Below are positions 35,664-54,126 of a DNA stretch of 64,000 nucleotides, one piece after another; position 1 is the stretch's first letter, and each line of letters begins with the position of its first letter. This DNA is from Neisseriaceae bacterium (GTDB taxonomy: Bacteria > Pseudomonadota > Gammaproteobacteria > Burkholderiales > UBA11063). Below the pieces are notes generated by a model. The model worked only from the letters and a program-made list of their open reading frames with translations. It was not told the origin of the DNA and searched no databases. The position numbers and the translations under genes were made by a program. The stretch spans positions 164,894-228,893 of the forward strand of contig RXJX01000014.1 of assembly GCA_003963245.1 (NCBI GenBank). The letters are read 5' to 3'.

Positions 35664-35683
35664 ATTTTCTGTTAAAATAGCGC
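35664..35683 (+). repeat. attL core
   Basis: ATTTTCTGTTAAAATAGCGC, identical to 54107-54126. Confidence 0.88.
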
Positions 35684-35706
35684 AAATAACAGAATTAATT
35701 AACGGA

Positions 35707-35732
35707 CATATGTCACTATCATGTGTTACTAT
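35707..35732 (+). promoter_or_regulatory. Candidate arm-type integrase binding sites (tandem 13-mers)
   Basis: CATATGTCACTAT/CATGTGTTACTAT (11/13); inverted partners TGACATAT at 35863-35870 and AGTGACATAT at 53923-53932. Confidence 0.45.
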
Positions 35733-35744
35733 GTTCGTTATTGA

Positions 35745-35773
35745 TTGTTGAGTTTTTGTTTTTTTGATATAAT
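35745..35773 (+). promoter_or_regulatory. Sigma70 promoter inside the left end of the element
   Basis: TTGTTG-17 nt-TATAAT with an extended TG. Confidence 0.55.
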
Positions 35774-35888
35774 CTTTGTTGTAGCTTATAGTATTTATGA
35801 TTTTGATCCTGTGTGCTAGGGTTAATTAATTGTTACGAGAACTGCTAATTCTCGCACAATCATGACATATTTTAAGTTTCGAAAAATG

Positions 35889-35920
35889 CCCGAATAGACT
35901 CAAATCTATTCGGGTTTGTT
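35889..35920 (+). terminator. Intrinsic terminator upstream of the integrase
   Basis: Perfect 10-bp stem CCCGAATAGA-ctcaaa-TCTATTCGGG followed by TTTGTT. Confidence 0.65.
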
Positions 35921-36052
35921 CTCCTAACCCCTAAATTTATCATATTTTTATTTTTTTGTTAAAAAAATTTTTATTTTTGGTTGACATACTACATTCAAAA
36001 TTCATAAACTGAAATATATTATAACTTATTCATCAATTTAGAGTGTTTATAT

Positions 36053-37177
36053 ATGTTTCCAGAATCAGAATTGATTTTACCGCTAAAACTAGCATTTAGA
36101 GATCTTAATCATAACGCTACCACCGATGCTGACGCTTGCCAGTTGATAACATGGCTAAAAGAAAATAACAATTGTGCCAAGGCAACTGCAAGAGTGTACC
36201 GTACTATTATTTTACGTTTTTATCTTTATGTGAAGTTTGATCAAAAATTAACATTAGATCAAGTAAAGCGCGGTAACATCATAGATTATCAGATTTTTTT
36301 AAGAAATCCGCCTAAGGAATGGCAAGGTACCTTTCGCCCGCTTGAACATCAATTATGGCGTCCATTTTCATGCAAAAAACTAATCTCAAAAACGATTGCT
36401 TACAACGTTCAGGTTATACAGCAATTATTTTTGTATCTGAAAAATACTGAATATCTGAAATCAACGCCAGCAGCAATACCATTGAAAGTCAAATATGATA
36501 AAGATAGTGATAGCATCCTTAATAAATATTTTACAGAGAAAGAATATCCACAAATAAGTGCTTTCATTAAAAATCAGACAACAAAGACTGATAAGCAGGA
36601 AGAATTAAAGGTCCGTGGTACATGGATATTTAGCCTTTTAATTGGAACCGGAGCTCGAAGATCTGAAGTTGCAAATGCAACAATGAATGATGTAGTATTC
36701 AATGAAGATAGAATATGGCTTAAGGTTCTTGGAAAAGGAAATAAATCTGGAACAATTCCCATTACAAATCAAATTGAGATGGCTCTTAATGAGTACCGTG
36801 CATACTATAATCTGCCACCAATTAGGCAGAGAATAGAATCAGAAAAAAATATTCCGTTAATAATAAAAACTTTCAAAAACGGGAAATACATGACATTTAA
36901 TAGTGCTTTAATAGGCTGGCAGTTGAAGAAAATTGGGCAAGACATGATAAAATCCAAACTAGATATTTGTCACTCTTTCCGAACTAAGCTACAGAATATT
37001 TCTACTCACTGGATGCGGCATACTTCTGCAACAATCCAAGCCAACTGTGGCATAGATATCAGATATGTTCAAAAAAATCTTCGACATGCATCAATTGAAA
37101 CAACAATGAGATACCAACATGTGGAAAAAAATGTACAGCATTTAGAGACCTGCAGTAAATTTGTACTTGATTTGTAA
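36053..37177 (+). CDS. Tyrosine recombinase/integrase
   Basis: Catalytic R (TGARRSE), K (GKGNK), HxxR (HWMRH), H (LRHAS) and Y (TMRY); N-terminal SAM-like region with WRPF. Confidence 0.93.
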   Translation: MFPESELILPLKLAFRDLNHNATTDADACQLITWLKENNNCAKATARVYRTIILRFYLYVKFDQKLTLDQVKRGNIIDYQIFLRNPPKEWQGTFRPLEHQLWRPFSCKKLISKTIAYNVQVIQQLFLYLKNTEYLKSTPAAIPLKVKYDKDSDSILNKYFTEKEYPQISAFIKNQTTKTDKQEELKVRGTWIFSLLIGTGARRSEVANATMNDVVFNEDRIWLKVLGKGNKSGTIPITNQIEMALNEYRAYYNLPPIRQRIESEKNIPLIIKTFKNGKYMTFNSALIGWQLKKIGQDMIKSKLDICHSFRTKLQNISTHWMRHTSATIQANCGIDIRYVQKNLRHASIETTMRYQHVEKNVQHLETCSKFVLDL

Positions 37178-37273
37178 TTTATCAGACAATACCTGTGCTT
37201 TTATGAAATTATATTAAAAAATCAAAGATACGTAATTGTTTAGGTTAATTATAATTTTTAAAAAGAGATTATT

Positions 37274-38830
37274 ATGAAAATATTGAAACATTGTTTGACG
37301 CTTCTGATTCCTGTGATTGTTACAGCATGTAATGGTGGTGGCGCTTCTGGTGATAGCCCTGCACCAACTCCTACTCAGGCACCAACTCCTACTCCAACCA
37401 CTATCGCTCCATTACAGGTTGAAGTTGTACAACAAACAGCGGATCTAGGAACAGTTAATTGGATTGATTTACGGAAAGTTGGAAGCACTACTAATTTTAA
37501 ACTTAAATTTACCAATACAAATAGTGTGCCAGTTGGGTTTTATGGTGATTCAATTGTAGGTGAAAGCAAAGAGCAGATAAATTTTTTAAATCTTCAAATT
37601 AACTCCATGCATAATATATATTTTGCCAATAATTCATCAACAGACTCTAGTAATTGTGCTTATTATCAACTTCTTAATGGGTATAAAACAACTGAATCTG
37701 GTAAAACAATTTACAACTGGCAAAACGGTAACTCCATGCTTAATCCTGGACAATCTTGTTATTTCAACGTTTTTGCCTACTCTTTTCTCAATATGACTGA
37801 ATCTGATATTTTTAATGTCGCGTTATATTATAACTTACATACCAGTAAATATGACCCGAATGGACTATACAACACGGCAGATTATACAAAATATTACGAG
37901 TCGAACATCATTAACATGAAGCTAGTAAAACTAACGCCTGTTAACGATACTGTAACTAAATCTGTATTCTGGGGTAGCTCTCCAACTATCTCGTTAGATG
38001 GGAAGTATGCTGCTACATCTTCTGTATCTGGTAGTAATGTAACTGTCACTCGATACAATGTTAGCTATGATAATGTTAATGGATTAAATTACACCTCACC
38101 AATCACATTTGTGGTTCCAAATTGTAACTATGCTGGATATGGCGGTATTGGAGCCGCATCATTATCTCCAACCGGTGATGCCGCATTTGTTTCATGTTCT
38201 TATTCAGATCAGCAATGGGTACAAATTTGGAAAATTAATTCCGATGCAACTGCACAATATGAATCATACCTGAATTATTATGGAGCATATTGGATTAGCG
38301 GTTTTGACTATAATGTTTATGCGACACCATCTTATAATGCTACAGCATTTTTTAAATTCAATAATAATAGCTACCAGTTTAGTTCAACTGGCCTCATTAA
38401 CCCGCTCACTTACTTTACAAGTGAGATTAATACCGATGGTACAATTATTCAAGCTAACGGTAGCTATAACTGGCAATGTTTAAATAGTGATGGTAGTGTA
38501 GTTCCTTTAACTGGTTTAGGAGATAATTTCAATGTTTATAACTATAATAATTCAGACTATTTAACTAATTTAGATACAGCACGATTGAGCATTAAATTAC
38601 AATATCCATCAATTCCAATTGAACAATATTCTGATGGCACGGTTTTTAAATATCAACCAAACCTAGTAGGATTAGCAAAAGTTAATACGAGTAATGGTAA
38701 CTGTTATATTGAAAGCAATAACTTTATAAACACTACACAAACAATCGCATTTTACATAACTCCAGATTATGTTGCTATTCCTTACGATGGTACCATATAC
38801 GTCACCAGCAGCAACAATCTAGCTAAGTAA
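37274..38830 (+). CDS. Hypothetical surface lipoprotein with a Pro/Thr linker
   Basis: Lipobox VTAC; PAPTPTQAPTPTPT linker (16-bp DNA repeat at 37361 and 37379); Tyr/Asn-rich beta-structured body. Confidence 0.75.
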   Translation: MKILKHCLTLLIPVIVTACNGGGASGDSPAPTPTQAPTPTPTTIAPLQVEVVQQTADLGTVNWIDLRKVGSTTNFKLKFTNTNSVPVGFYGDSIVGESKEQINFLNLQINSMHNIYFANNSSTDSSNCAYYQLLNGYKTTESGKTIYNWQNGNSMLNPGQSCYFNVFAYSFLNMTESDIFNVALYYNLHTSKYDPNGLYNTADYTKYYESNIINMKLVKLTPVNDTVTKSVFWGSSPTISLDGKYAATSSVSGSNVTVTRYNVSYDNVNGLNYTSPITFVVPNCNYAGYGGIGAASLSPTGDAAFVSCSYSDQQWVQIWKINSDATAQYESYLNYYGAYWISGFDYNVYATPSYNATAFFKFNNNSYQFSSTGLINPLTYFTSEINTDGTIIQANGSYNWQCLNSDGSVVPLTGLGDNFNVYNYNNSDYLTNLDTARLSIKLQYPSIPIEQYSDGTVFKYQPNLVGLAKVNTSNGNCYIESNNFINTTQTIAFYITPDYVAIPYDGTIYVTSSNNLAK

Positions 38831-38835
38831 CCAAA

Positions 38836-38860
38836 AAAGAGCTTCAACAAGAAGCTCTTT
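38836..38860. terminator. Bidirectional terminator between the convergent lipoprotein and PilV-like genes
   Basis: AAAGAGCTTC-aacaa-GAAGCTCTTT with A and T tails. Confidence 0.7.
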
Positions 38861-38866
38861 ATTTTA

Positions 38867-40615
38867 TTACGGTGTCTGGGTATTAAGTTTGGAGGGATCA
38901 TTGGTTATAGTTACATAGTCAAGATTAACAATATGGCTTAATCTAGTTCCGCCATTAGTGTACCAACCGGAGCACCAAGCTGGTGAACCCCATGAATACG
39001 ACTGAAAATTATATTGCTGGGCATTAATTGTAACTGGCACGCCATGACTATTATACGTATATCTTCCACCACCGCCAACATAACTTGCACCTAAATAGCG
39101 CCATGCACCATAACCTCGTTCAGTATCCATAAACCCTCCTTTTTGGTCGCAACCAACAGCAAGATTGTTTGGTGATGGATTGTCACCACATCCAGCTCCT
39201 GGACAATTAGTTATCGCATATGGTGCATTGGGTTGGAATGGATCACTGGTTTCATAATTAATGATAAAGAAGCCTTTAGGAGCCGTATAAGTAGTTGGAT
39301 TGCTCGGATGCGTCCTTATCACTACATTACTGGTAGGGAGGTAACAATAGCCATCATCTGATGAGCAGAGAGGGTTGTACTGGCACATTACTTGTGCTGT
39401 AAATAACTTGGTGTACTGTCCATCATCTGGTTGCATTTGGGCAATGCGGCCAATATTTTCTTTGTGGTATTGATCACAGGTTAGGCTTGATCCTTGTGCG
39501 CTTCCGTCTGTATCTACTGGAATCTTGAGCGTTGGTTGTAATGATAAAACTTGCAAAGAGCCAACGTACGGATTTTGATTAGGGTTATTATTTGGAGCAT
39601 TTGCGCTCTTATTGAATCCTGTTATTTGAACAACTTTTCTGCCGTCATTAGAGGTTGAATAGGCGATTGAGAGTTGTTTGTTAATATTATTTTCCGTATC
39701 TAAACATTGAGAGTCCGATGGTGGACAATTTGGATTATTTTGGAATATTAAGGCGTAATGCTTATTGTATAGAAGGTGTGGTCCTTTTGGCGCTTCCGGA
39801 TTAGGGTGATCCGCACTATTATCCCCTGTTGCATCCATGATTAACTGACCTGTCATAACATTACCATTATCCTTATCGTCTGGATTATCCGTACCATTAT
39901 CAGTAAATCTATGAACAGCGTTATCTGGCTGCAGCATGTCATTATTACGTGACATCCCTATAAGATTAAGTAGAATGCTGTTGTTAGCAATTGAGTTACC
40001 AGCACACTTATAACTATTCTCATTAAGTCCTGTTTGGTCCATATATATATTTTGCGATTGAGATATTTGGTATGGATTAATGACTTTAGTATTATTAAGC
40101 CATAAATCTGGGTTTAAGTTCCAACCTCTACCGTTACTATATATATTATTATCAATAACTGAACCAGCAACATTACCTAGTTGATTAAGCGCAGCACTAA
40201 TTTCTCTTGTGCTCATTGCTTGGGTTTTAGTTGTACTATCACCGCGAAGGACAATTACACCTTGCACCATATTGTTACTGTCTAACGATATCTCTAAACA
40301 TGGAATTTGCTTATAGTTAGTGAGTAATGGCGTATTTTTAGATACATAAGCTTGATCAATTAATGTTTGAATCGGAATCTGGATCTGTGAACCTTGAGCG
40401 CTATTCTGCAGCACGTTGGATAACGCCGTAAAATTATTGGTTATGTACCTTGAATATGCAACAGCAATTGGCTGTAGTGAATTAGCTAGTTTTTCTCCTT
40501 TGTCTTTAAGATAATAATTCTTAATAATAGGATAAGTTGCAGCAGATAAGATCCCAATAATCATTAATGAAATGGAAAGCTCTATAAGAGTGAAACCTGA
40601 ATATTTACTTCTCAT
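38867..40615 (-). CDS. Shufflon-PilV-like pilus tip adhesin (prepilin N-terminus)
   Basis: Class III signal G|FTLIEL plus a TM helix; N-terminal domain pattern AYSRYITNNF...IQTLIDQAYV...QGVIVLRG...LNQLGNVAGSV resembles R64 PilV; Cys/Gly/Trp-rich C-terminal domain. Confidence 0.75.
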   Translation of the reverse strand: MRSKYSGFTLIELSISLMIIGILSAATYPIIKNYYLKDKGEKLANSLQPIAVAYSRYITNNFTALSNVLQNSAQGSQIQIPIQTLIDQAYVSKNTPLLTNYKQIPCLEISLDSNNMVQGVIVLRGDSTTKTQAMSTREISAALNQLGNVAGSVIDNNIYSNGRGWNLNPDLWLNNTKVINPYQISQSQNIYMDQTGLNENSYKCAGNSIANNSILLNLIGMSRNNDMLQPDNAVHRFTDNGTDNPDDKDNGNVMTGQLIMDATGDNSADHPNPEAPKGPHLLYNKHYALIFQNNPNCPPSDSQCLDTENNINKQLSIAYSTSNDGRKVVQITGFNKSANAPNNNPNQNPYVGSLQVLSLQPTLKIPVDTDGSAQGSSLTCDQYHKENIGRIAQMQPDDGQYTKLFTAQVMCQYNPLCSSDDGYCYLPTSNVVIRTHPSNPTTYTAPKGFFIINYETSDPFQPNAPYAITNCPGAGCGDNPSPNNLAVGCDQKGGFMDTERGYGAWRYLGASYVGGGGRYTYNSHGVPVTINAQQYNFQSYSWGSPAWCSGWYTNGGTRLSHIVNLDYVTITNDPSKLNTQTP

Positions 40616-41031
40616 TTATTTCTCCGCTTCTCGAACATTCTTCTTTGTCCTTGGTCAATGATCTCTTGGAATTCGGTGCCGTACAATCCACTATATGATA
40701 TTGTCTCTATTTTTTTTCCGATTTTTGCTTCGATTTCTTCGAGCTTTTTATTAAATTCCATAATGTAAAAACAAAACAATGCTTTATGTGCTGATCTTAG
40801 TGCTACACCGTCGAATCTATCTTGACCTAATACCAAGGGTACCAACGCACCCCACTGATATATTCGGTGATTACGTTCTTTACGTGCTTTGGCTTTATCA
40901 GCTTTTTGTTTTTCTTTTTCTTTTTGAGCATTCAATTGATTTTCGAGTTTTTCTTTCGCTTTTTGAATTTTATTAAGTTCGCGATTAACCAGTTTAATCT
41001 TCTGTTTTGTTTCATTTAATTTATCGTTCAT
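40612..41031 (-). CDS. Mobilization helper protein (TraD/MobC-like coiled coil)
   Basis: N-terminal coiled coil then RKERNHRIYQWGALV, similar to TraD-type RxxRLIxLGGLV; directly downstream of the relaxase. Confidence 0.6.
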   Translation of the reverse strand: MNDKLNETKQKIKLVNRELNKIQKAKEKLENQLNAQKEKEKQKADKAKARKERNHRIYQWGALVPLVLGQDRFDGVALRSAHKALFCFYIMEFNKKLEEIEAKIGKKIETISYSGLYGTEFQEIIDQGQRRMFEKRRNK

Positions 41032-41049
41032 GATTTTCCCTTTTAATTA

Positions 41050-42363
41050 TTAATTCATGATTCCTATGATGTCTAATTTGTGTTTTTGTTTGCTTTTTTG
41101 TAATTTTTTGGTTTCAAGTTTTTTTTGATGATCTTGGTTTTTTAATTCTACGTTTTTATATTTTTCATTATTTGCAATTATATCAATAGCTTGATCGATA
41201 AATCCATCGTTACCAACCAAATTTAATTGATTGCCGAACTGACGTTGTGCTAATTCGATTGCTAATTCAATTGATGGCCTTGAATCTGGATCCATAATCT
41301 GAATTTCTTTTTTTGAATACTTTATTTTTTTGTCTTTCGTTATCCAGATTGGAGTTTTATTTATGTGATCATAATACCGTGTGAAGTATTGGCCATATTC
41401 ACGAGCGAAATCAAATAATACAATTAAATCAGTAGAATATATGCATGCATGTTTTTTTATGTATTTTCTTTTTTTTGTTTTTTCATTATTGATTGGATCT
41501 GGGGATTGTCTTTTTGTTTCATTTATTTTAATTTCTTTTTTTAATTCTTTTTCAATTTCATTTTTTTCTTTTTCTAATTTTTTAGCTTTTTTTTGCCAAT
41601 ATTTTTTTGAAAAATTCAAATTAAATAATTCTCGATAGTATTGGTCAATTTGGCGATTGTGGTCGCCATTATTGGTTTGAATTCCTTGGCGTTCTAGTTG
41701 TGTAGCCTCCCGACCTAGGTGCTTTTTGACTGTTTGTCGGTCCAGTTTCTTTGAGCAACACACTTCTTGGTCAACTCCAGCCAGTTGGAGGTGCCGATTC
41801 TGAATTGTCTCCCAGTCTAGTCTTATTTGTTTAATTTGATCTTGGGTTATAGCCTTACCCTCCTTAATTAATCGTCCATTATCTAGTTCTATGTCAGTCT
41901 TAGCCTTGAGTTGGTATGTGTTAGAGTCGAATATTCTAGTTGTGGTTAATATGTGTGCATGCACATTACCATTATCATCAGATTCATTGTGGATGGCCCA
42001 GTCCGCGACATTCTTGTATCGTGACGTAATTAGCCGTGCGAATTCCCTAGTTAGCTCAATATTCTGTCTAATGGTTAACTCCTGAGGCAGTGCGATTACA
42101 TACTCCCGAGCAGTTCTACTGTTGCTTCGATTATCCGCAGCCTCCGCAGCATTCCATATCTCTGACCGATGTATTGTGTCAATAGTTGTATCTCCATGCG
42201 TAATCTCACTCCACATCAGATCTGTCGACTTCCTGGTGTAGTTATGAATTTTAGATGTGCGGTCGTCGGTGATTATGGCTCGCGCGATGTACGCAATCTT
42301 GGCCGTCGCTGAATGTCCGTCACTGCGCGACACAGTCTTAATTTGCAGGTTATATATAGCCAT
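41050..42363 (-). CDS. mobA: MobA/MobL (MOBQ) relaxase with an LPD7-like C-terminal domain
   Basis: ATG at 42363: MAIYNLQIKTVSRSDGHSATAKIAY (catalytic Tyr), AREYVIALPQEL, WAIHN...NVHAHIL HUH motif; C-terminal IELAIELAQRQFGNQLNLVGNDGF. Confidence 0.9.
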   Translation of the reverse strand: MAIYNLQIKTVSRSDGHSATAKIAYIARAIITDDRTSKIHNYTRKSTDLMWSEITHGDTTIDTIHRSEIWNAAEAADNRSNSRTAREYVIALPQELTIRQNIELTREFARLITSRYKNVADWAIHNESDDNGNVHAHILTTTRIFDSNTYQLKAKTDIELDNGRLIKEGKAITQDQIKQIRLDWETIQNRHLQLAGVDQEVCCSKKLDRQTVKKHLGREATQLERQGIQTNNGDHNRQIDQYYRELFNLNFSKKYWQKKAKKLEKEKNEIEKELKKEIKINETKRQSPDPINNEKTKKRKYIKKHACIYSTDLIVLFDFAREYGQYFTRYYDHINKTPIWITKDKKIKYSKKEIQIMDPDSRPSIELAIELAQRQFGNQLNLVGNDGFIDQAIDIIANNEKYKNVELKNQDHQKKLETKKLQKSKQKHKLDIIGIMN

Positions 42364-42379
42364 TTTTCCTTTCCTTTTT

Positions 42380-42440
42380 GTTACTTTTGTCCCAAAAGTA
42401 ACGCACTGAGAACTGCAAGTTCTCGTATAGTGCGCATTCA
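42380..42440 (+). promoter_or_regulatory. MOBQ-type origin of transfer (oriT)
   Basis: GAGAACT-gca-AGTTCTC (42408-42424) followed by GTATAGTGCG^CA. This matches the MOBQ layout of an IR followed by TAAGTGCG^C (RSF1010/pIP501). A second IR GTTACTTTTG-tcc-CAAAAGTAAC lies at 42380-42402. Confidence 0.8.
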
Positions 42441-42449
42441 CTGTTATAT

Positions 42450-42900
42450 TTTCGCAATTTCAATTTTTGATTTTTTAAGTAAATTAGCAAATATGCTACA
42501 ATTATTATAACACGACATTTTATTTATTTTATATTTTTTATATTTAAACTTATTGATTGATTGTTTTGTAATATAAAAATTTTTATATTATATATTAGTA
42601 TATTATATGCGTTAAAAATATTATATTTTCATATAAATACTTTTAAATTCTGTTATTATGTTTTAATAATCATATAATATGTTGCGTTTATATATTCTTT
42701 TACATAAAATTTTATTTTTTTATATTACTGTTTTGTATATATATTATGCTAATTTAATATTTTTATATTTTTTACATGGTAAAATGTTTTAAATTATTGT
42801 ATAATGTTTCGTTTTAACTATATTATGTTTTATTATGTTTCAGTAAATATAAGTTGCCAAAGCATAAAATAAAATGCTAAGATAAGAATATTTATTTTAA
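42450..42900. other. Extremely AT-rich non-coding tract
   Basis: About 10-15% GC by eye (6/60 in the line starting 42541); recurring TATTATG. Confidence 0.7.
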
Positions 42901-42915
42901 TAAACAGAGAAATTT

Positions 42916-43572
42916 ATGAAATATAATGAGTACCAAAAATTAAAGGAAAGTAAAAAGATTAGGGAATTTCTTAACATAAAGATTCTTACAGAAGAATCAT
43001 TAGTTGGACTAGTCCCTATAGAGCTAAGTAAAAAAATCTGCAATTCTAGGTTAAACGATGATTGCCGAAAAGGTATAGTATATGTTGCACTAATAATTGA
43101 ACAAATTGGAATAGACCCGAATTTACTAGTTAAAGTAGTAAATCCATTTTTATTTGTAGGCTCTGACTCAATAGTAAGTCTTTCAATGTATTTAAGAGGT
43201 AATGAGGAAGAAAAGCAGAAGATAGTAGGACTTCTAAATAAGTTTGACTTTTCTTATGGCGAATATATCGGCGATATGTTTACGTTGATATTAACTATGG
43301 CTAAGGATAGCATTTCCGAAAGAATTTTGGCAGATATAATTGAATTTGCTCGTGATCCTAATGTCAGTTATGGTAATAAAATATTCGCATATGAAACTAT
43401 TTGGAAAGAATACATCCGGTTATCAAATATGTCAAATCATAATATGCAACTAAGAGTTAAAGAAATTCTAAATAAAGATATGGTGCAAAAAGCAGTAGAT
43501 TATTATTATCTAATCTCCTCAATTTGTAAGCCAGGTACTATTGATAAGATACAAAACATATTACAACATTAA
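42916..43572 (+). CDS. Hypothetical protein (helical)
   Basis: 218-aa ORF with an AGAG-like RBS; no recognised motif. Confidence 0.7.
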   Translation: MKYNEYQKLKESKKIREFLNIKILTEESLVGLVPIELSKKICNSRLNDDCRKGIVYVALIIEQIGIDPNLLVKVVNPFLFVGSDSIVSLSMYLRGNEEEKQKIVGLLNKFDFSYGEYIGDMFTLILTMAKDSISERILADIIEFARDPNVSYGNKIFAYETIWKEYIRLSNMSNHNMQLRVKEILNKDMVQKAVDYYYLISSICKPGTIDKIQNILQH

Positions 43573-44026: not shown

Positions 44027-44554
44027 ATGCAAGATCGTTTAACAATAAGAAGCAGTCAGCGCAGTGCACCATTAATCGCTCGAGTGGAAGAAATAGCCAA
44101 ACAACGCAACTTTGGGAAGGTAACTCCAGCCCTGCTCGATATACTCGAGCTTGGCTTGAAATCTTTTGATTCAGGTTATCGGTTAGTAGATGGCAAACTA
44201 TTAACCGTTGATGAATTACCAAGTGTTGTCAGTATTGAAAAAGAAGTAGCTAAAAGCCTGTACGGACAATTAACTGGTGAATTAGTAAACCTAGAATACT
44301 ACGAGGAAGAAAAACCACAACCAGACCAGCAAAAACTAGGTTTTTATTTGTTAATCCGTAAAGCGCTGCGAGTAGAACAATCTGGATTTTATAAGCTTAC
44401 GGTTGAACAGGCAATTGCCCGACAGAACACTTTCACGTCACCAATTTTGTTAGCTCTACGAAGCGTTGATACCCCAGAAGAAGTCGAGCGTATTATTTTT
44501 GAATATGAAGCTGAGTTTTTAGAACTAATTCAAAAAACCGGTGTTAGCTTATGA
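44027..44554 (+). CDS. Putative antitoxin with an N-terminal ribbon-helix-helix-like domain
   Basis: GGAGG RBS; beta strand RLTIR then two helices; stop overlaps the zeta toxin start (ATGA). Confidence 0.55.
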   Translation: MQDRLTIRSSQRSAPLIARVEEIAKQRNFGKVTPALLDILELGLKSFDSGYRLVDGKLLTVDELPSVVSIEKEVAKSLYGQLTGELVNLEYYEEEKPQPDQQKLGFYLLIRKALRVEQSGFYKLTVEQAIARQNTFTSPILLALRSVDTPEEVERIIFEYEAEFLELIQKTGVSL

Positions 44555-45369
44555 GCTTTGATCAAAAAATTGCAGACCTAATTTTGCGTAAAGCTCGGCA
44601 GGATTTAGACTTATCAAACAAAACACCCAGTGATAATCCAACTCTTGTTGTTCTAGGTGGTCAGCCTGGTGCTGGAAAATCATCAATTATTGATTTAATT
44701 GATGAACGCTTTAGCGGGAATGTTGCCGTCTTAAATGGTGATGAGCTTAAGCCTTATTATCCGGGATACAAAAGGTTGTTGAAAGAAGATCCAGACAAAG
44801 CCAGTAGAATTGTTCAAGAATATAGCAATTATGCAATTGATGCTATTAAACAAGAGCTGATGCAGCGCCAATATAACTTAATTATTGAAGGTACCATGCG
44901 GAATCCTAATATACCAATAGGAACTGCAAAATCAGCAAGAAGTAACGGTTACTCAGTTGAAGCATGTATAGTAGCAACTAACTATTACGCAAGTCGAGTT
45001 GGTTGCATCAAACGTTATGAACTTGATGTGGCGGTGAGCGGAGTTGGTAGAAGTGTTCCAGTTGCAAGTCATGACGAGGCATATAATAATATTCCTTCAA
45101 CCATTGCAGCATTGGTTGAGTCCAAGCAGTTTGATAATATTCAGATATTCTCGCGTAATGGTGAAATTTTAGGCAATATTATTGATGGTAATGAACTAGC
45201 TCAAATCTATAGCCGCCATCGAGAAAATCTTTCATCAGAGTTATATCAAGAAATATTGCAAAATCTAGACACAACAAAATATATGAAAAATTCCAGAGCC
45301 GCTCCCAGTGATGAATTATTTGAATTAGATAGTTTAAAAGATGAATTTTTGGCAAAATATAGATTATGA
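44551..45369 (+). CDS. Zeta toxin family kinase (PezT/zeta-like)
   Basis: GGQPGAGKS P-loop, NGDELK, IIEGTMRN, KRYE and GRSVP correspond to zeta catalytic motifs. Confidence 0.88.
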   Translation: MSFDQKIADLILRKARQDLDLSNKTPSDNPTLVVLGGQPGAGKSSIIDLIDERFSGNVAVLNGDELKPYYPGYKRLLKEDPDKASRIVQEYSNYAIDAIKQELMQRQYNLIIEGTMRNPNIPIGTAKSARSNGYSVEACIVATNYYASRVGCIKRYELDVAVSGVGRSVPVASHDEAYNNIPSTIAALVESKQFDNIQIFSRNGEILGNIIDGNELAQIYSRHRENLSSELYQEILQNLDTTKYMKNSRAAPSDELFELDSLKDEFLAKYRL

Positions 45370-45895: not shown

Positions 45896-46260
45896 CTCAA
45901 TTTAAGCTCTCACATTACAGGGGTATAGGGAGTGTTGTTGTGTGAGCTCGTCGAGCCCCCATATATGCGTACCATCTACCTAAAAAGCACTTTTTTATCG
46001 CGGTTTAACTCCAGTTTACCGAAAACCTTCCCGCGCTCTAATTACTGTTTTGTTGCTTCATTTAAGAATAACTCACAGCTTTATAGAATATCTTGTTATT
46101 AACTTCTTATTTGCAGAGGTTTCATAATATATGATCATTTAATGGAATTAAAAATGACAAAAAAACATGGTCAACTTTGATTAGTGGCCAAAAAAAGCTA
46201 AGACTTATCAATCTATTCACATTATGTTTTAAGAACGATTAAATATGTTGAAAAGCTAAT

Positions 46261-47943
46261 TCATTTTTTAGATTTGAAATTACTCGATATATAATTCAAA
46301 TCTAACTTATCATAGTTTATCATTCTACCATAAATATACCCTTGAATTTTAGGATATGACGGCAACTCTGATATTGCAGTATTTAAACACCAACAATACT
46401 CGCTTGATGTCCACATATCTCTTGCTGAGTTTGCAATATTACATAGAATTAAGGATTCAAATCCGCTAGGGAGTACTATACTAGATCGATTTTGTTTATA
46501 TTTTTTACTTGAATAATTTATATAACATTTAATTTTATAATAAATAGATACATTATTACAGCCTAAACCAAAGCATTCTAACAACATTGAAAAGATTGAA
46601 AGTTCCTTAAAATGTTCAACAAAATGTTTATTATAGAACTTCTCCCAGTTCGGTATCCTTTGTTCTTTAACAACGCTAAGGTTATATAAAATAAAAAAAT
46701 AATACAGAAATTGTTTATGCTTTTTTTTGCTGGTGGAATAGATTTCGAGAATTTTATTCATAAGATTTGTCAAATCATTAATTTTACCGATCTGAAGTTG
46801 TACCATAAACGCGTTCAATCTTAGTACAGCCTGTTCTTCTGTAAAGTTTTCATGTTGCCACACCCATAGTTCTGGGGACAGCTCTGCATTCATTATTCCA
46901 GGTAAATTTGACCGCCAGTTATACTTTTCATGTTTAACCTTTGGCAATTTATGTACAACGTTCATGATAACATGTCTAACGAGCCTAAACAAACCAGAAA
47001 ATGTTAAATATGGCTGCCCAAATACAATTAATGAGTCTATTTTAGACATCTGTATCATTTTTAATTGCATTGGAACACTATCTAAACCATGAACAAATCT
47101 AGATCTAATGTTATAAGTATTTAGTAACGATTGCTTTAGTTGACTAAACGGAATAGGGTTTTGAACATTAATTGTACCAGATGTAAAAAATGATTCATCA
47201 ATGTTATCTTCAATAAAAGTAATAAATGATTGTTGCGCCTTTGGATGCTGAGATTCGATTAATATACGTTTAATCTCATGAATATTGCTAAGCGATATAT
47301 CTTTGAATACAACGCCTAATTGATGCCTAATTTTCTCATCAATGTCGTTCCAAGTAGTTCTTGTATTACCAATGTTACCAGCCAAAGATTCTAAACAATA
47401 CACCAATAAACTATATGCCATTTCAAAGTTATAATTTAATACTTCAATAGAATCTTGTACGGTTCGTATAGATGATATTATTTTTTGATAACTATTTCTC
47501 TCGAGTCCAATTATTTCATCAACAAACTTTGTTAAAAATTCGGTTTCAGCTAATGTCAACGTTCGATTGAATTTAACGATTTGGGGAAGTATTTCAGCTG
47601 GTAATACACCGTTGGATTCAGCTGATTTATTTTGATTACATATACTTAATACATGTTCCCTAGTTCTGGAGAAGTAGGCATTAAACCCAAAACTACAAAT
47701 AATCTTAAACTGTTCAAGTATCTCACTATCTCCAACACGAACTAGAAAACCATCACGCTCGATTCTGTTCACATAATTGAATACGTAGGTCGCTACTCTA
47801 TCCTGAGTAATTATAGGTTCTAAATCCCCAACAACAGTCTCAATCTTACTAACCCAACTGACATTAGAAAATAATACTCCTTTCCCATGATTAATTTCAA
47901 GATCATTAGAAGAGAAAAATTTGCCACTAATAATTTGTAACAT
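46261..47943 (-). CDS. HEPN-domain (ApeA-like) protein, putative defence RNase
   Basis: LLVYCLESL ... YNIRSRFVHG (Rx4H) motif; located in a defence cluster. Confidence 0.65.
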   Translation of the reverse strand: MLQIISGKFFSSNDLEINHGKGVLFSNVSWVSKIETVVGDLEPIITQDRVATYVFNYVNRIERDGFLVRVGDSEILEQFKIICSFGFNAYFSRTREHVLSICNQNKSAESNGVLPAEILPQIVKFNRTLTLAETEFLTKFVDEIIGLERNSYQKIISSIRTVQDSIEVLNYNFEMAYSLLVYCLESLAGNIGNTRTTWNDIDEKIRHQLGVVFKDISLSNIHEIKRILIESQHPKAQQSFITFIEDNIDESFFTSGTINVQNPIPFSQLKQSLLNTYNIRSRFVHGLDSVPMQLKMIQMSKIDSLIVFGQPYLTFSGLFRLVRHVIMNVVHKLPKVKHEKYNWRSNLPGIMNAELSPELWVWQHENFTEEQAVLRLNAFMVQLQIGKINDLTNLMNKILEIYSTSKKKHKQFLYYFFILYNLSVVKEQRIPNWEKFYNKHFVEHFKELSIFSMLLECFGLGCNNVSIYYKIKCYINYSSKKYKQNRSSIVLPSGFESLILCNIANSARDMWTSSEYCWCLNTAISELPSYPKIQGYIYGRMINYDKLDLNYISSNFKSKK

Positions 47944-48036
47944 AACGACTCGTTTTTAACACAATGATAATTTTACTTGGTAGCTTATTCTTAATATTAT
48001 TAGTAAATTTAAGTTAACTTGTGATATAAATCAGAT

Positions 48037-49251
48037 TTAACTATTACTTGTCTGTCTGTTATATAATAAGTGAATAAAAGTATCTAAGTTAATAATCCAA
48101 TCCTGTTGTGATGCCGAATAACTACTATGAATACTACTTGGTAAAACTAACTGCACGTTTTTAGATATCATTTCGTTAGTCTGATTTTCACTAATTCCTG
48201 GTTCTAGAGTAAATAGGTGTTTATTATTTATTCGATTAGCTTCTGGCAATATTTGCCGCCAACGATCTTTACAAGTGGACTTTGCACCTAACATAGATAA
48301 TAACTCTTCTGGAAATGCTGGATTATGATAACTCGCTATATCTGGAAAAATAAAATCTGGTTTATTTCTATTTTCGGTTATCGCCGTACGACTATAACTA
48401 ATATTCTTTATCTTAAAAATTTGCTCTAAATGATTTTCTAGTGAACCACCAGCCCTCGATTTACGTCGATTTTGTACACTGAGTGAATATGATACAAATG
48501 AATCAACATCATCATCAAATCCCTGCCGCAATCTATCACCAATAATATGTCTTTCTAGGGTTCTAAATAAAACTTCTTCACGTTCTAACCACGCCATAAT
48601 AATTTCGTCTGCGCTACCCGTAAGATCAATGTCTGAAATCGTTGATCTTGCATATTCAGAGAAAATTCGCGTCGTAGGAAATGATCCATCGAATTTTTCT
48701 AGCATCTGTTCGAGGTAGTTTTCATCTGTCGTCTGGACTTCGATACCAATTTGCTCAAGTATATACCTTGAAGCAAATTCTAGCCTAACCTGATCACTTT
48801 CCAACTCGCCCTTAACTGAAAAACCAGGATGCGTCAAATCGCTAAAACCAAATAACCATAATATCTGATTCTCAATAGTTGACTCTGCTTCAGCTATTAT
48901 TAATAATATAGAATTATCTGGTCTGCGTCCAATAACCAATAAATCACCTTCATTAGCATTACTTGATACATTGGTAGTTGGGAAATATAACCTAAACTCA
49001 GTTCTGATAGGATGATTTTCTCTAGCATCATACCAAGTCAGCGTTGATCTTTCTGTTATTGGTTCTGGATCATCGTCACTAAGATAAATAAAGGTTGTCC
49101 CGTAGGTTTTCCTATCTGTTCCAAACATACCTTTCAAACCTTTATCACCATTGAATTCGTGCTGATTAGAACGATGTGGGTGGGCTTCTACTGCACTAAG
49201 CCTTTTAGTTGCTACATGCGTAAAATACTCGGATAGGTAACCTCTTTTCAT
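48037..49251 (-). CDS. EcoRII-family type II restriction endonuclease
   Basis: RRKSRAGGSLENHL, KPDFIFP, AKSTCKDRWRQIL and HLFTLEPGIS; N-terminal KRLS effector-like domain. Confidence 0.92.
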   Translation of the reverse strand: MKRGYLSEYFTHVATKRLSAVEAHPHRSNQHEFNGDKGLKGMFGTDRKTYGTTFIYLSDDDPEPITERSTLTWYDARENHPIRTEFRLYFPTTNVSSNANEGDLLVIGRRPDNSILLIIAEAESTIENQILWLFGFSDLTHPGFSVKGELESDQVRLEFASRYILEQIGIEVQTTDENYLEQMLEKFDGSFPTTRIFSEYARSTISDIDLTGSADEIIMAWLEREEVLFRTLERHIIGDRLRQGFDDDVDSFVSYSLSVQNRRKSRAGGSLENHLEQIFKIKNISYSRTAITENRNKPDFIFPDIASYHNPAFPEELLSMLGAKSTCKDRWRQILPEANRINNKHLFTLEPGISENQTNEMISKNVQLVLPSSIHSSYSASQQDWIINLDTFIHLLYNRQTSNS

Positions 49252-49289
49252 AAATAAACCTCTATGATATTAAAATAAGCCAGACAACT

Positions 49290-50552
49290 TCAAACCACAA
49301 GTTGCTCTTGTACCATCTTAGATTTTTCTACTAAAGATAAAATATGCGGCTGCATGATTTTTGCAACATGCTCAATAAGCGGCACTACGACAGAATTACC
49401 AAATTGCTTATATGCTCTAGTGTCAGAAACAATAATTTTGAATGAATCATCAAACCCCATCAGTCTCGCACACTCCCTAGGCGTTAGCCTACGAGGATTT
49501 TTTCCAGGACCTCTAGTGATAAGAATTTCCGAGCCATCTTTATAATAGCGCGCAGATAATGTTCTTGCTGTATCATTAGGTCCAACAACACTACAACCAA
49601 ACCCATTACCTAAAGCTTTATGTTTTGCAGCATAAGCTTGGAGGTACGCCCATAGCTTATCAGTAAGTACATATTTAGAACATACTTTACCTGAATTACC
49701 AACTATAAACCTTCCTTCATCAATATCTAACTCTGTTGCATCTTCTGCATGAAGAATATCACTCAGTTTAGGCGAATCAATTGTAATATCGGGTAAAGGG
49801 ATGGAATTCCAATCAAATTCGACTTTGTCTTTAAACCCTACGATAATAATACGTTCGCGATTTTGTGGAGTAAAATGTTTACCGTTAATAACTTTATAAC
49901 TAATATGATAGCCAAGCTGATTTTCTAATGTATCTTTAATTACAGCAAAAGTATTACCTTTATCATGAGAAAGTAAATTTTTAACATTCTCTAATAAAAA
50001 TGCTTTTGGCTGTTTCTCAGCAATGATTCTAGCCACGTCAAAGAATAATGTACCCTGGGTTGTACACTCAAAGCCATGAGGTTTACCTAATGCATTTTTT
50101 TTGGAAACGCCTGCAATACTAAAAGGTTGACAAGGAAATCCTGCTAATAAAACATCATGATCAGGAATATCACTAGCATTAACTTGGGTAATATCTCCAG
50201 CTATAGGATGCTCATCACCAAAATTTGCGGCATAAGTCTTTTGTGCATAAAAATCCCACTCAGAAGTAAAAACACATTTACCACCAATTGACTCAAAACC
50301 CAAACGAATCCCGCCAATGCCAGCGAATAAATCAATGAAAGTAAATGCTTCACTAGTAAGATTTGACTTCTTATTTCCTTGTAGTATTTCTTTAAGAGCT
50401 GGAACAACTGCAATAGGGATCTGTGTTTGACCAGATTCCCAACGAGAGATATGCCGTGGAGAATAGTCTAAAAAATGAGCAAGCTCTTTTTGGGAGTACA
50501 CCTTTCGCAACTGAGAAAGAATGCGTGGAGCTTCTATATTTGATAACTTCAT
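49290..50552 (-). CDS. dcm: Dcm/M.EcoRII-like C5 cytosine methyltransferase with an N-terminal HTH
   Basis: FIDLFAGIGG, GFPCQ, ENVKNL, QNRER, TLSARYYKDG and QFGNSV; N-terminal SQKELA...ISRWESG HTH; Dcm-like TRD suggests CCWGG. Confidence 0.93.
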   Translation of the reverse strand: MKLSNIEAPRILSQLRKVYSQKELAHFLDYSPRHISRWESGQTQIPIAVVPALKEILQGNKKSNLTSEAFTFIDLFAGIGGIRLGFESIGGKCVFTSEWDFYAQKTYAANFGDEHPIAGDITQVNASDIPDHDVLLAGFPCQPFSIAGVSKKNALGKPHGFECTTQGTLFFDVARIIAEKQPKAFLLENVKNLLSHDKGNTFAVIKDTLENQLGYHISYKVINGKHFTPQNRERIIIVGFKDKVEFDWNSIPLPDITIDSPKLSDILHAEDATELDIDEGRFIVGNSGKVCSKYVLTDKLWAYLQAYAAKHKALGNGFGCSVVGPNDTARTLSARYYKDGSEILITRGPGKNPRRLTPRECARLMGFDDSFKIIVSDTRAYKQFGNSVVVPLIEHVAKIMQPHILSLVEKSKMVQEQLVV

Positions 50553-50737
50553 GTTATTTATCCTGGAATTTTATATGACATTATATCATTGAATAATACC
50601 ATTAGTAAATGAAGTTATTTAGTTTGCTAAATAAATTTATTTTTATTTATTTAGATGGCGCTAAAACAAATCCAAAATTCGGTAATAATAGTGGTTACGG
50701 ATAACTTCTTTTTTAGCAACTCTACAGCTAATTTTGT

Positions 50738-51108
50738 TTATGATAAGAAACCCGATAATAGCTTATTTATTATGATTAGCACACACAATACCAACGATGC
50801 TAGCTCTATTCCGATATGTATATTCATTAGCTTAATAAATCGCTGGGTATCCCAGATAAATGTCCTAAAATCAAAAAAATCCGAAACTAATAAAAAGACC
50901 GTAAAAATAATGTCTATTATCAATACAACCGTAAGTAACTTGGTTATATAATATTCGTTACCCCACAAGCTATATATTAATAGCGCATCGCTTGCTATAC
51001 AAATGTAAGACTCAGCATATATTTTTTAATTAATGAATCTTCATCTGAATTAGGATTAAAAAACCATGATTTAAAATAATCAATCAACTTCTGGATAGTA
51101 TTCTTCAT
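50738..51108 (-). pseudogene. Small membrane protein with an apparent 1-bp deletion
   Basis: ATG at 51108 gives MKNTIQKLIDYF...MLSLTFV*. A -1 shift at about 50998 continues IASDALLIYSLWGNEYY... into ORF 50738-50968. Confidence 0.45.
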
Positions 51109-51254
51109 ATAATTTATCTGTAAATTGGAACTTTGTTATATCTCTAGCGAACTCTAAACATGCGACGAATTCTTCTGATTTGTTCATCTGTATAGTTTTG
51201 CCTATGTAAAGATTCGTCATCTGTATGTATCACATAGTATACTCTAATATTACA

Positions 51255-51335
51255 CGTTGCAAACCGTCAAATAACGTAATAATAGACTTATATTATTAAG
51301 ATAAATACATCATGTCTTATATGTTATAATTCCTA
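51255..51335. promoter_or_regulatory. Possible res site/promoter of the WGR-resolvase unit
   Basis: CGTCAAATAA...ATAGAC and TGTCTTAT half-site-like sequences upstream of the serine recombinase operon. Confidence 0.3.
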
Positions 51336-51410
51336 TTATTACAAATTAAGCCATTTTATTACGCCTTTTATCTTACCCACATCAAATGTAGATAGCCACT
51401 GAGTACCACC

Positions 51411-51692
51411 ATGATATATATGATAAATCCGCATAAGAATAGATTCTATTGGATAATGTTACAGCAAGATTTATTTGGCACATGGTGTATTATTAAAGTT
51501 TATGGTGGATTGCATAATAATCATTGCCACAAACAAGTAATTGCATACCCAAATGAGGAGCTAGCTTTGCAAGCGCTATCTGAAATTGAATCGATCCGTC
51601 GAGCACGTGGCTATGAGTATAGTAGCAATTACCTTACTGATTATTTTCATTTAAAACCCCAAACACTAACTGAGGTATTAAATAAGAATTAA
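51411..51692 (+). CDS. WGR-domain protein
   Basis: RFYWIMLQQDLFGTWCIIKVYGG...A.......RRARGY. Confidence 0.8.
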   Translation: MIYMINPHKNRFYWIMLQQDLFGTWCIIKVYGGLHNNHCHKQVIAYPNEELALQALSEIESIRRARGYEYSSNYLTDYFHLKPQTLTEVLNKN

Positions 51693-51695
51693 AAC

Positions 51696-52274
51696 ATGAC
51701 TAAAAAATCAACAGGAAAAAATATTGGCTATGTTCGCGTTAGTACCGTCGAACAAAATACTAGCCGACAATTAGAAGAAATATCTCTCGATAAAAAGTTT
51801 ATTGATAAATGCTCTGGCAAGGATACAAATCGACCTAGCCTACAACTCATGTTAGATTATGTTCGAGATGGTGATATTGTTTATGTTCACTCAATGGATA
51901 GGTTAGCTCGTAACTTAGAAGACTTACGAAAGATCATAAGTACTTTGGCCGAGAAAAAAGTCAAGATACATTTTGTTAAAGAATCACTGATCTTCAATGG
52001 TGAAGATTCGCCAATGGCTAACTTCATGTTAAATATCATGGGAGCATTTGCTGAGTTTGAACGAGCGTTGATCCGAGAGCGACAAAAAGAAGGGATTGCA
52101 ATCGCTAAAAAAGATGGTAAATATCATGGGCGTAGTAAATGTTTAACCTCTGAACAATTACAAGAAATCAAACAGCTAGTAGCAGATAGATATAAGAAAA
52201 CTGAGATCGCTGAAAGATTCGGAATCAGCCGTGACACCTTATATCGTTATCTTCGGAATAATAAATCGCAGTAA
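51696..52274 (+). CDS. Serine recombinase (resolvase/invertase family)
   Basis: GYVRVST, DRLARN, AEFERALIRERQ and C-terminal HTH IAERFGISRDTLYRYL. Confidence 0.95.
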   Translation: MTKKSTGKNIGYVRVSTVEQNTSRQLEEISLDKKFIDKCSGKDTNRPSLQLMLDYVRDGDIVYVHSMDRLARNLEDLRKIISTLAEKKVKIHFVKESLIFNGEDSPMANFMLNIMGAFAEFERALIRERQKEGIAIAKKDGKYHGRSKCLTSEQLQEIKQLVADRYKKTEIAERFGISRDTLYRYLRNNKSQ

Positions 52275-52562
52275 TTACTAGATAAACCCCATCTGTCACA
52301 AAGCATAAAAATGTCCTAGCCCCGTACAATAGAACTATTCAAGATTTTACAATTCCGGGAACTGAGCAAAAATACCCATTATGCGGTAGGTTACAAAATA
52401 TTCAGAAAATCCTTGGCGTTCTGTAAAGCCCAAATAAAGATATCTAAACCTTGTTGCTTTCGGCAACTAGTGTTATAGAAACATTATTGCTACCAATTTT
52501 TCCACAACTTTTGTGGGTTAGTATTTTTTTGATAATTACTTCAGTGGTCAAAAATTATTTAC

Positions 52563-52790
52563 ATGGAAAATCACAAAAGTCAAAAATTTTATTGGATGAC
52601 AGTCAAACAAGACTTGTTTGGTAACTGGTGCATTCATAAGATTTATGGTGGTGTCTTCACAATAATCACCACCACTCAAATTAACCCCCTGTATTGACAA
52701 AAATGAGTTTAAGCAAACACGGTTAAAATGTGGCGACATATATTCTTTACTAAACACTTCTTAGAAACAATTCAGACTATTATGCACTAA
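52563..52790 (+). pseudogene. Degenerate second WGR-domain gene
   Basis: MENHKSQKFYWMTVKQDLFGNWCIHKIYGG, then a frameshift (GGTGGTGTCTTCACAATAAT; the intact copy encodes GGLHNN) and a stop at 52697. Confidence 0.75.
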
Positions 52791-52956
52791 AGCTACAAAC
52801 GATATCTAATATAAGCTATATTACCTTTTGCTGTAACCGTGTATTACTTGTATTAATGTAGGCTATACTTTTCTCGAAATAATCTTGAGTGGCTGAATAT
52901 TTTCAGAGCCACACTTGTCGCATTTATATTCCATTTTATCCTCTACTAAACACATA

Positions 52957-53307
52957 TCAATTATTGATTTTATGATAATTGCTGGAATTGGAACATCCAA
53001 ACCAATTCATAAACATTTCATTATCTTTAACCATTTTTATGACACCCATACCGCCGCTACCATCTATTACTAAATTTTTATCATCAACTACAGATAAAGT
53101 CTTCTGTACTGGTTTTGGATTTTTTTGTCCCAATAAACGCGCCTGAACATTTTCATATGAAAGCTTATAAGCATCACCATCTTTAAATATTTTCACTGGA
53201 AAATCTTTCCCACAATCATCATTTACCCACGTACCAACAAACTTATCAGCAGATTTAGTACAACCAACGGCTAAAACACAAGTTAACAGGAATAAAGATT
53301 TTTTCAT
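52957..53307 (-). CDS. Small hypothetical lipoprotein
   Basis: Lipobox LAVGC; KFVGTW motif; 116 aa. Confidence 0.75.
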   Translation of the reverse strand: MKKSLFLLTCVLAVGCTKSADKFVGTWVNDDCGKDFPVKIFKDGDAYKLSYENVQARLLGQKNPKPVQKTLSVVDDKNLVIDGSGGMGVIKMVKDNEMFMNWFGCSNSSNYHKINN

Positions 53308-53336
53308 AATGCACCTCGAAAATAATAAAACATGGT

Positions 53337-53880
53337 TCCGGGACTATGGATTTCGCTACGCGACCGCGGAATAACCTATTAGCTGCCTATGGACAGACAA
53401 GCTGACCACAGGACAGCTAACAAGTTATTTCCGCTACTCCACAGCCCCGTCAAATATAAACGATTATAATAAAATTTTTTGGATGATTCTGGTTCGCTTC
53501 AAAAATACAATAACGTACCAACCAAAACCACAAGCCGAAAATAATGCGCAAGCGCATGCCGAGATTCGGCCGGGAGCCTCATCATCGAGGCAATATTAAC
53601 CCTATATCCACGCCAAATAAAGCATGAATCCGAAGTATCAAGAGGCAAGACCAATTCGTTAATTGTGGCCTATAGTTGATGCTTTATTGCGATTAACCGC
53701 ACTGCTAGAATTGCCATCAACGCCGTTAATGTCGCATCGTATGATATTTATTGCTCTTGTACCACTTGATACGAAGCTCACAAAAATACGCATATATGCG
53801 GTATAATTACGACTACAACCCAATTGCCCCTATCTAGCTGCCAACTCGTGTGGGGCTTTCTTTCATTGAGGGGGAAATTC
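53337..53880. other. ORF-free, hairpin-dense, GC-elevated segment (candidate single-strand origin or structured RNA)
   Basis: Nested ~113-nt stem-loop at 53337-53449; hairpins ATGCGC-aa-GCGCAT, GCCGA-gat-TCGGC, GCCTC-atcatc-GAGGC; palindrome CGCATATATGCG. Confidence 0.55.
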
Positions 53881-54106
53881 GATGAGAGCTGGGACCATAT
53901 CAGGGAGCCTATCCCCGTGGTAAGTGACATATAGCATCGACAAAAACCCAAAAAAATAAAAAATTTTATATGTTTACTTTTTTGTTTAATTTTTAGGGTG
54001 GTCGAAGCTTGAGAAAGTAATTTAATTTATTTGATTTATTAAAAGTACTTGATATACTTAGCCAAAATACAAATAAATATTGATTATTTTTAATATTAAA
54101 CTTGCT

Positions 54107-54126
54107 ATTTTCTGTTAAAATAGCGC
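54107..54126 (+). repeat. attR core, overlapping the probable ybaB extended -10
   Basis: ATTTTCTGTTAAAATAGCGC identical to attL; lies in the perfect IR GCTATTTT-ctgtt-AAAATAGC; contains TGnTAAAAT about 35 nt before the ybaB ATG. Confidence 0.88.

Follow-up and report, generated by a model that had tools for sequence, protein, structure and literature searches.

An 18.4-kb integrative mobilizable element whose probable chromosomal site is the extended -10 box of ybaB, a relic of the dnaX 3' end

Integrative mobilizable elements (IMEs), which combine a tyrosine integrase with a MOB relaxase, are a well-described class (Guedon et al. 2017, PMC5704250). Here we analyze a stretch of 64,000 nucleotides from a Neisseriaceae bacterium (assembly GCA_003963245.1, contig RXJX01000014.1, positions 164,894 to 228,893), in the following called the window. 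Its positions 35664-54126 are very probably an 18.4-kb IME whose chromosomal site is the extended -10 box of ybaB (also called ebfC), a relic of the dnaX tail. Like the described IMEs, the element possesses its own integrase, attachment (att) repeats, a relaxase, toxin-antitoxin and restriction-modification cargo and no mating-pore genes, and it would presumably depend on a helper. It differs from them in its target, which is the -10 box of a promoter and not a tRNA gene or the 3' end of a protein gene. Moreover, it carries a structured RNA between the core and the integrase gene (int), and its integrase belongs to a clade found only in the genus and in metagenomes.

Integration at ebfC has been described in streptococci for the integrative and conjugative element (ICE) of S. 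parasanguinis FW213, for IME_SdyRE378_ebfC and IME_SiniSF1_ebfC and for the GBSInt8 prophages; these elements enter the 5' end of the coding sequence, and in the ebfC case the promoter is replaced (PMC4701971, PMC5704250, PMC7487436). The upstream DNA is replaced in the window as well. However, the crossover would fall here in a -10 box that is retained, and 30 nt lie between the core and the ATG. The hosts also differ, being Firmicutes there and labelled Burkholderiales here, and the likeness noted here is one of site. PMC4701971 cites the TnGBS1/TnGBS2 family of conjugative transposons, whose DDE transposase places them in front of sigma-A promoters, 15-16 bp upstream of the -35 box. According to this citation their insertion is promoter-directed and affects many genes without inactivating them, a parallel to the relatives of the present element. 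They differ in using a DDE transposase upstream of the -35 box and in having no long shared core, whereas a tyrosine recombinase at the -10 box is found here. No DDE transposase domain was detected in the element.

The closest structures and profiles are those of the Xer-type "simple" tyrosine recombinases (XerD 1a0p, XerA 5hxy, XerH 5jjv and IntI4 2a3v), whose core likewise consists of two inverted half-sites around a short spacer. Unlike these enzymes, the integrase of the element has 70-80 additional residues, and its gene lies on a mobile, strain-variable island. Tn916-type integrases of low specificity use short variable coupling sequences, in contrast to the identical 20-bp cores observed here. 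Neither integration at ebfC/ybaB nor promoter-directed insertion, as in TnGBS, is without precedent. New are the -10 box as shared core of a tyrosine recombinase, the origin of this core from the dnaX tail and the genus-restricted structured RNA. No description of integration at the dnaX tail or at the ybaB -10 box was found in the open-access literature text. The element itself is ordinary in kind; its place is uncommon.

The boundaries of the element are marked by the 20-bp sequence ATTTTCTGTTAAAATAGCGC, which occurs in two exact copies in the window with a start-to-start distance of 18,443 bp. No further copies with up to 2 mismatches were found in the window, and none are expected from shuffled sequences. 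The sole other near match in the whole 2.8-Mb assembly has 2 mismatches. The right copy, which is preceded by GCT, lies in the perfect inverted repeat GCTATTTT-CTGTT-AAAATAGC at 54104-54124. It contains the extended -10 motif, with the ybaB ATG (54157) following 35 nt further on. The left flank is formed by aceA and aceB, the right flank by ybaB. The features of the two junctions are the following:

33884-35524, forward strand: aceB (malate synthase; Pfam MS_TIM-barrel, MS_N, MS_C), left chromosomal flank
35528-35630, no strand: copy of a dispersed repeat of ~100 bp between aceB and attL, resembling a repetitive extragenic palindrome (REP) or miniature inverted-repeat transposable element (MITE); chromosomal, not part of the element
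35664-35683, forward strand: attL core, 20 bp; TGTTAAAAT at 35670-35678 points into the element
54107-54126, forward strand: attR core, 20 bp; extended -10 TGTTAAAAT at 54113-54121 faces ybaB
54157-54486, forward strand: ybaB/ebfC, nucleoid-associated protein gene (PF02575), right chromosomal flank

The repeat, both of its positions, the inverted repeat at the right copy and a TGnTAAAAT upstream of ybaB had been reported in a preliminary description of the window, and all were found as described. The same is true for a tyrosine integrase about 370 bp inside the left end, whose open reading frame (ORF) starts 369 bp inside the left core. The presence of a repeat-bounded element at ybaB is confirmed. 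The GC content between the repeats is mostly 29-36%, compared to 37-41% in the flanks. The 64-kb window contains no tRNA genes.

The empty site was found in the same species. The exact YbaB protein is present on 23 public contigs. Two of the metagenome contigs, L094 (78 kb) and L096, come from the same species; they are 99.87% identical to window positions 29713-35683, and their match to the window continues from 54107 onwards. Their flank alignments overlap by exactly the 20-bp core, which corresponds to an empty attB. The same empty junction is seen on L093, L101 and L102 (93-96% identity), and the four sister species G013, G014, G020 and G045 show the order aceB, single core, ybaB. The preliminary description had staked the element on such a single core joining aceB to ybaB in relatives that lack the cargo, and this is what the conspecific contigs and the sister species possess. 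Three contigs from another group of runs (L092, L095 and L097) carry the element and agree with the window at 100% identity. The proteins of the element are singletons at 90% identity and derive from one set of runs only. Thus, the empty conspecific and sister sites together with the singleton proteins indicate a recent, precisely bounded and strain-variable insertion.

The ~100-bp repeat next to attL is present in dozens of copies with 75-93% identity in the genome of the window (G000) and in several sister genomes, and it also occurs in the empty sites of the conspecific contigs. Metagenome contigs often break inside it. On the other side of the core, the right flank of L094 and L096 is 95.8-96.6% identical to window positions 54107-60457, against the 99.87% of the left flank. 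This step in divergence at the att site may be the boundary of a recombination tract.

The origin of the core became apparent from a comparison of 38 genomes of the genus, 30 ybaB loci of which were used for pattern counts. In most of these genomes ybaB lies directly behind dnaX, and the homologue of the core is formed by the last dnaX codons. The dnaX tail of the linked genomes reads ..NNFSAKI(I/T)PNSIKP.* with invariant codons TTT TCT GCT. The pattern TTTCTGnTAnAAT occurs once per locus in 27 of the 30 ybaB loci. An extended -10 motif TGnTAnAAT lies in frame within the dnaX tail (FSAKI..) in 19 genomes with linked dnaX and ybaB. Residue changes between K, T and I in this tail still spell TAAAAT, TACAAT or TATAAT behind TGn.

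In the clade of the window (G000, G013, G014, G020 and G045) dnaX and ybaB are unlinked. The dnaX gene of G000 is intact and located on contig C40, and the true tail of the clade reads NFAAKI(V/I)PNSIKPL*. The true tails of the five genomes (TTTGCAGCC, TTTGCTGCC, TTTGCGGCT, TTCGCGGCT and TTCGCGACT) drift at synonymous sites, and TGnTAnAAT is found in none of them (0/5). The ~35-bp relic beside ybaB is non-coding, its old frame giving FSVKIAPNLNL, and it keeps TGTTAAAAT at a constant distance of 35 nt from the ATG. The genomes G011 (L075, G011:C54) and G052 (L079, G052:C204) also have ybaB unlinked from dnaX and retain a relic with TGCTAAAAT; this looks like an independent second rearrangement that carried the promoter along. 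The relic of G052 adjoins a divergent gene.

Judged from these alignments, the core derives from the 3' end of dnaX, as a relic apparently left on ybaB when the two genes separated. The assignment of the TGnTAnAAT motif as the ybaB promoter is well supported by sequence conservation, with the contrast between the relic and the true tails as the strongest evidence at hand. The core would be conserved because the relic carries the ybaB promoter. The preliminary description had let the att site coincide with this promoter in intergenic DNA. The conservation of the motif at the nucleotide level supports the coincidence, while the core is not merely intergenic but derived from dnaX. The relic represents a natural experiment, in which a promoter within the last dnaX codons constrains the synonymous sites of that gene.

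Extended -10 promoters function without a -35 box. A recognisable -35 box at proper spacing is present neither in the empty nor in the occupied site. We infer from both points that ybaB should tolerate the replacement of its upstream DNA.

The interior of the element comprises the following features:

35780-35919, forward strand: conserved structured RNA unit between core and int (covariance model R1, terminator scan), terminator hairpin at 35888-35915
36053-37177, forward strand: tyrosine integrase, 374 aa (PF00589), catalytic residues R202, K228, H319, R322, H345 and Y354
37274-38830, forward strand: 518-aa cargo protein without family match
38867-40615, reverse strand: 582-aa protein with prepilin-type N-terminal methylation motif (PF07963, TIGR02532)
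40612-41031, reverse strand: 139-aa protein downstream of the relaxase, without significant family match
41050-42441, reverse strand: MobA/MobL-family relaxase for mobilization (PF03389, E 4.9e-40)
44027-45369, forward strand: 175-aa partner protein without family match and zeta toxin (44551-45369; PF06414, E 2.8e-43)
46261-47943, reverse strand: 560-aa protein without family match
48037-50552, reverse strand: EcoRII-C type II restriction endonuclease (48037-49251) and C5 cytosine methyltransferase fused to a helix-turn-helix domain (49290-50552); PF09019, PF00145, PF01381, PADLOC REase_II
51411-52274, forward strand: 93-aa protein (weak WGR match) and small serine recombinase/resolvase (51696-52274; PF00239, PF02796)
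53308-54106, no strand: non-coding right arm of ~800 bp, which supplies GCT (54104-54106), the left half of the perfect inverted repeat

Domains of a type IV secretion system or of a coupling protein were found in none of the ORFs between the cores using Pfam, NCBIfam and PHROG. The element therefore has the anatomy of an IME, as the preliminary description had proposed: it encodes its own recombinase together with att repeats, it encodes its own relaxase, and it contains no complete mating pore or coupling protein. A replication initiator, a transposase and phage proteins are also missing from the element. No Rfam family matches any part of it, and megablast of the whole element against the PLSDB plasmids gave no match. 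Two other assignments were rejected. The 518-aa protein is dissimilar to the RepA_C protein encoded beside a related integrase and has no family match, and it was discarded as a replication initiator. A prophage or satellite origin was dismissed since the PHROGs gave no relevant match.

All catalytic residues of the integrase (R-K-H-R-H-Y) and its W(R/K)PF motif are invariant in the 18-sequence family alignment A1. The XerC, XerD, XerA and integron integrase profiles of NCBIfam match far below their cut-offs. With 93.5 bits for XerC (TIGR02224, cut-off 335) and 82.6 bits for XerD (TIGR02225, cut-off 330) the protein falls short of the equivalog level for both. The nearest solved structure by sequence is XerD, with E 1e-9 over 45 residues. 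The closest relatives (47-53% identity) come from small metagenome contigs, and one of these has a RepA_C protein gene next to the integrase. A 38% identical relative lies beside F-type transfer genes next to recC, and relatives with 28-31% identity are common on Burkholderia megaplasmids. The closer relatives are found in ICE-like regions, on small plasmid-like contigs and on chromosomal islands. The statement in the preliminary description that this integrase family usually resides on plasmids or chromids consequently holds for the distant relatives (28-31%) but not for the closer ones. The clade itself is restricted to the genus and to metagenomes. A search of genome contigs for loci related to the integrase alone gave one match, which was irrelevant.

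A paralogue with 37-40% identity is carried by nearly all genomes of the genus and occurs once per genome in all 22 of high quality (e.g., G000:C39:141810-142835 and G041:C1:1901495-1902517). The two contexts examined are non-syntenic. This protein may represent a domesticated recombinase or one that is universally carried.

The structured RNA unit consists of a promoter, TTGTTG-17-TATAAT, starting near 35745, followed by ~140 nt that contain three helices and end in a terminator. An alignment of 11 sequences supports 24 predicted pairs, 14 of them with compensatory changes. The covariance model R1 matches G000 at C1:200673-200812, and the unit has no match in Rfam. With this model 12 instances were detected in 6 of the 38 genus genomes, always beside a mobile-type integrase, and the unit also occurs on a few metagenome contigs. 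It was not detected beside the 37-40% paralogue or more distant integrases, nor in the 166 other genera of the order (167 genera sampled). The RNA may act as an attenuator or regulator of int.

These features suggest how the element would have arrived. The tyrosine integrase would have recombined the circular element with the chromosomal site, the attP core on the circle being the perfect dyad GCTATTTT-CTGTT-AAAATAGC. The crossover would take place within the shared 20 bp, leaving one core at each end. Insertion would swap everything upstream of the TG and leave ybaB with a usable promoter, which would also set its transcription start. The core copy in attL points inward to the structured RNA and int. 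Excision would yield an 18,443-bp circle and the restored order aceB-core-ybaB, and the relaxase would allow a co-resident conjugative system to move the circle.

Some observations weigh against this interpretation. A simple promoter scanner does not call the ybaB -10 site, which lacks a -35 match. The scan revealed an outward-facing promoter-like site in the right arm at 54031-54058 (TTGATT-16-TATACT with TG upstream), 50 bp before the core, that could drive ybaB, or add to its transcription, when the site is occupied. Only a single insertion of this particular element is known. Finally, an exact search of the JGI metagenome contigs with the core and the int-proximal arm, a sequence common to attL and attP, gave no match.

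The strongest alternative, though an unlikely one, is that the core was kept only as left-over dnaX coding sequence or as integrase binding site. It would then not be the ybaB promoter and would resemble a -10 box due to AT-richness. The genome is indeed AT-rich, AWWATAGC half-sites are inevitably -10-like, and the negative promoter scan fits as well. However, it is the real, unlinked dnaX tail that has lost the motif in 5 of 5 genomes, while the non-coding relic keeps both the motif and the 35-nt distance. Furthermore, amino acid replacements in the tail across the genus still preserve TAnAAT. Both observations argue for the promoter.

Somewhat less probable still is a single past integration of a mobilizable plasmid or IME that has since become fixed and unable to excise, with the repeats left as a historical scar. 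The plasmid-type resolvase, the zeta toxin and the MobA/MobL relaxase are in line with such a history. No excisionase-like gene was recognised in the element, the attP junction was not found in the JGI contigs, and all occupied contigs stem from one group of runs. Against fixation speak the uninterrupted integrase ORF, which has kept every catalytic residue, and the identity of the two 20-bp cores. In addition, strains with 99.87% identical left flanks do not carry the element. Near-identical strains lacking the element point to its recent gain or loss. That the 20-bp repeats are a transposase target-site duplication or a product of homologous recombination is scarcely credible: a target duplication would likewise be single-copy in empty sites, but neither a transposase nor terminal inverted repeats were found in the element, 20 bp is far beyond the usual duplication length, the reconstructed attP forms a perfect 8-5-8 dyad typical for a tyrosine-recombinase core, and the integrase lies 369 bp from the core as in relatives.

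At the family level, TGnTAnAAT is located ~100-120 nt upstream of the RNA start in 11 of the 12 genus instances, and the metagenome contigs L114, L118, L026 and L103 likewise carry it there. The element of the window and its closest relatives carry the motif on the same strand as int. A second group has it on the other strand, at exactly -104; in this group the adjacent chromosomal gene is divergent, with its start 29-45 nt past the motif. The neighbours in this second group are:

G013:C5: typA/bipA
G002:C58: mdh
L118: hemB
G014:C5: maa-type acetyltransferase gene
G014:C113: HAD hydrolase gene
G013:C38: gene of a 253-aa protein

G000 provides the empty site for typA, the HAD hydrolase gene and the gene of the 253-aa protein. 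In these three pairs the occupied and the empty site have only (A)ATATG(C/T)TATAAT at the -10 position and the downstream leader in common, and the upstream sequence is wholly different. For mdh, G000 possesses the orthologous TGCTAAAAT at equal distance from the ATG. G002:C58 and L114 share nearly the same int-proximal arm and have different left flanks. The genomic context of hemB in G000 differs from that of the related element. Since junctions on the -10 box are shared in several genes, the subfamily seems to recombine at extended -10 boxes. In its widest form the proposal is that the RNA-marked integrase subfamily uses TGnTAnAAT itself as the core, and that IMEs and ICE-like elements insert in either orientation between the -35 and -10 boxes of many housekeeping promoters (ybaB, typA, mdh, hemB, maa, HAD hydrolase gene, gene of the 253-aa protein). 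At present this proposal could go either way.

The sample at the family level is small, and several points qualify the generalization. For none of the related elements was the far end (attR) found: contigs end early, and no direct repeat of at least 13 bp was seen within 30 kb. A short match of 12 bp is present in G014:C5, and in G013:C2 no clear right junction of the typA element was seen. AT-rich half-sites AWWATAG(C) resemble -10 boxes by nature. The "type A" elements L197, L195 and L204 (G013:C5, G014:C113 and G013:C38) have near-identical int-proximal arms. The ~20 nt between their ATTATA(G/A)CATA motif and the conserved arm are wholly different, which is unexpected for simple core-type recombination. 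A third group (G041, L026, G043:C19, G014:C29, G013:C2 and G002:C1) has the perfect palindrome TTCACTATTAT-(TGTT or AACA)-ATAATAGTGAA at the core position. It lies at ~9590 in L026 and at 9298-9319 in L057 (G041), and is also present in L199, L201, L202 and L205. The 4-bp spacer is TGTT in 2/6 and AACA in 4/6, i.e., inverted relative to int. The left half of the palindrome is identical in all copies, unlike an expected hybrid attL.

Integrative elements are usually located via tRNA genes and the 3' ends of conserved genes. If the proposal is true, a recombinase clade with a -10-box core escapes such scans. The -10 box would be duplicated on insertion, so that the host gene keeps a promoter independent of a -35 box and the other copy reads into the element, coupling element genes to host promoters. 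This would explain how a gene such as ybaB, essential or growth-regulated, can escape silencing by an element located in front of it. It would also provide a tyrosine-recombinase counterpart to the DDE-based promoter targeting of TnGBS, and a compact integrase whose target class, the extended -10 box, recurs many times in any genome.

The remaining results concern the cargo and the transfer functions. Read from left to right, the relaxase gene is followed by three small orphan proteins, the last of which (175 aa) is coupled to the zeta toxin; the two are likely a toxin-antitoxin stabilisation pair. A 153-aa orphan protein lies between the zeta toxin and the 560-aa orphan. The gene of the 582-aa protein with the prepilin motif immediately follows the relaxase operon, on an element that has no pilus or secretion genes. 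No ORF of at least 60 aa with a family match is present in the right arm (53308-54106). In the circular form, the promoter-like site of this arm could read across attP toward int.

VirB4-like and VirD4-like genes are located elsewhere in the same genome on contig C2 (G000:C2:34769-46725) and may represent a helper conjugative element. A partial integrase (C2:71978-72718) and a maa-type gene are found in their vicinity. Homologues of the F-type TraC, TraB and coupling protein (T4CP) of the related ICE-like regions were not detected in G000 by tblastn. A last observation was made on L104, a contig encoding a 50% identical integrase. Its positions 2306-2322 immediately precede the -35 box of the RNA unit and are identical over 17 nt to the dnaX-tail consensus of the genus (TTTCTGCTAAAATAACC), and GCTAT-CTGTT-TGATT is found at the canonical core position ~45 nt further upstream.

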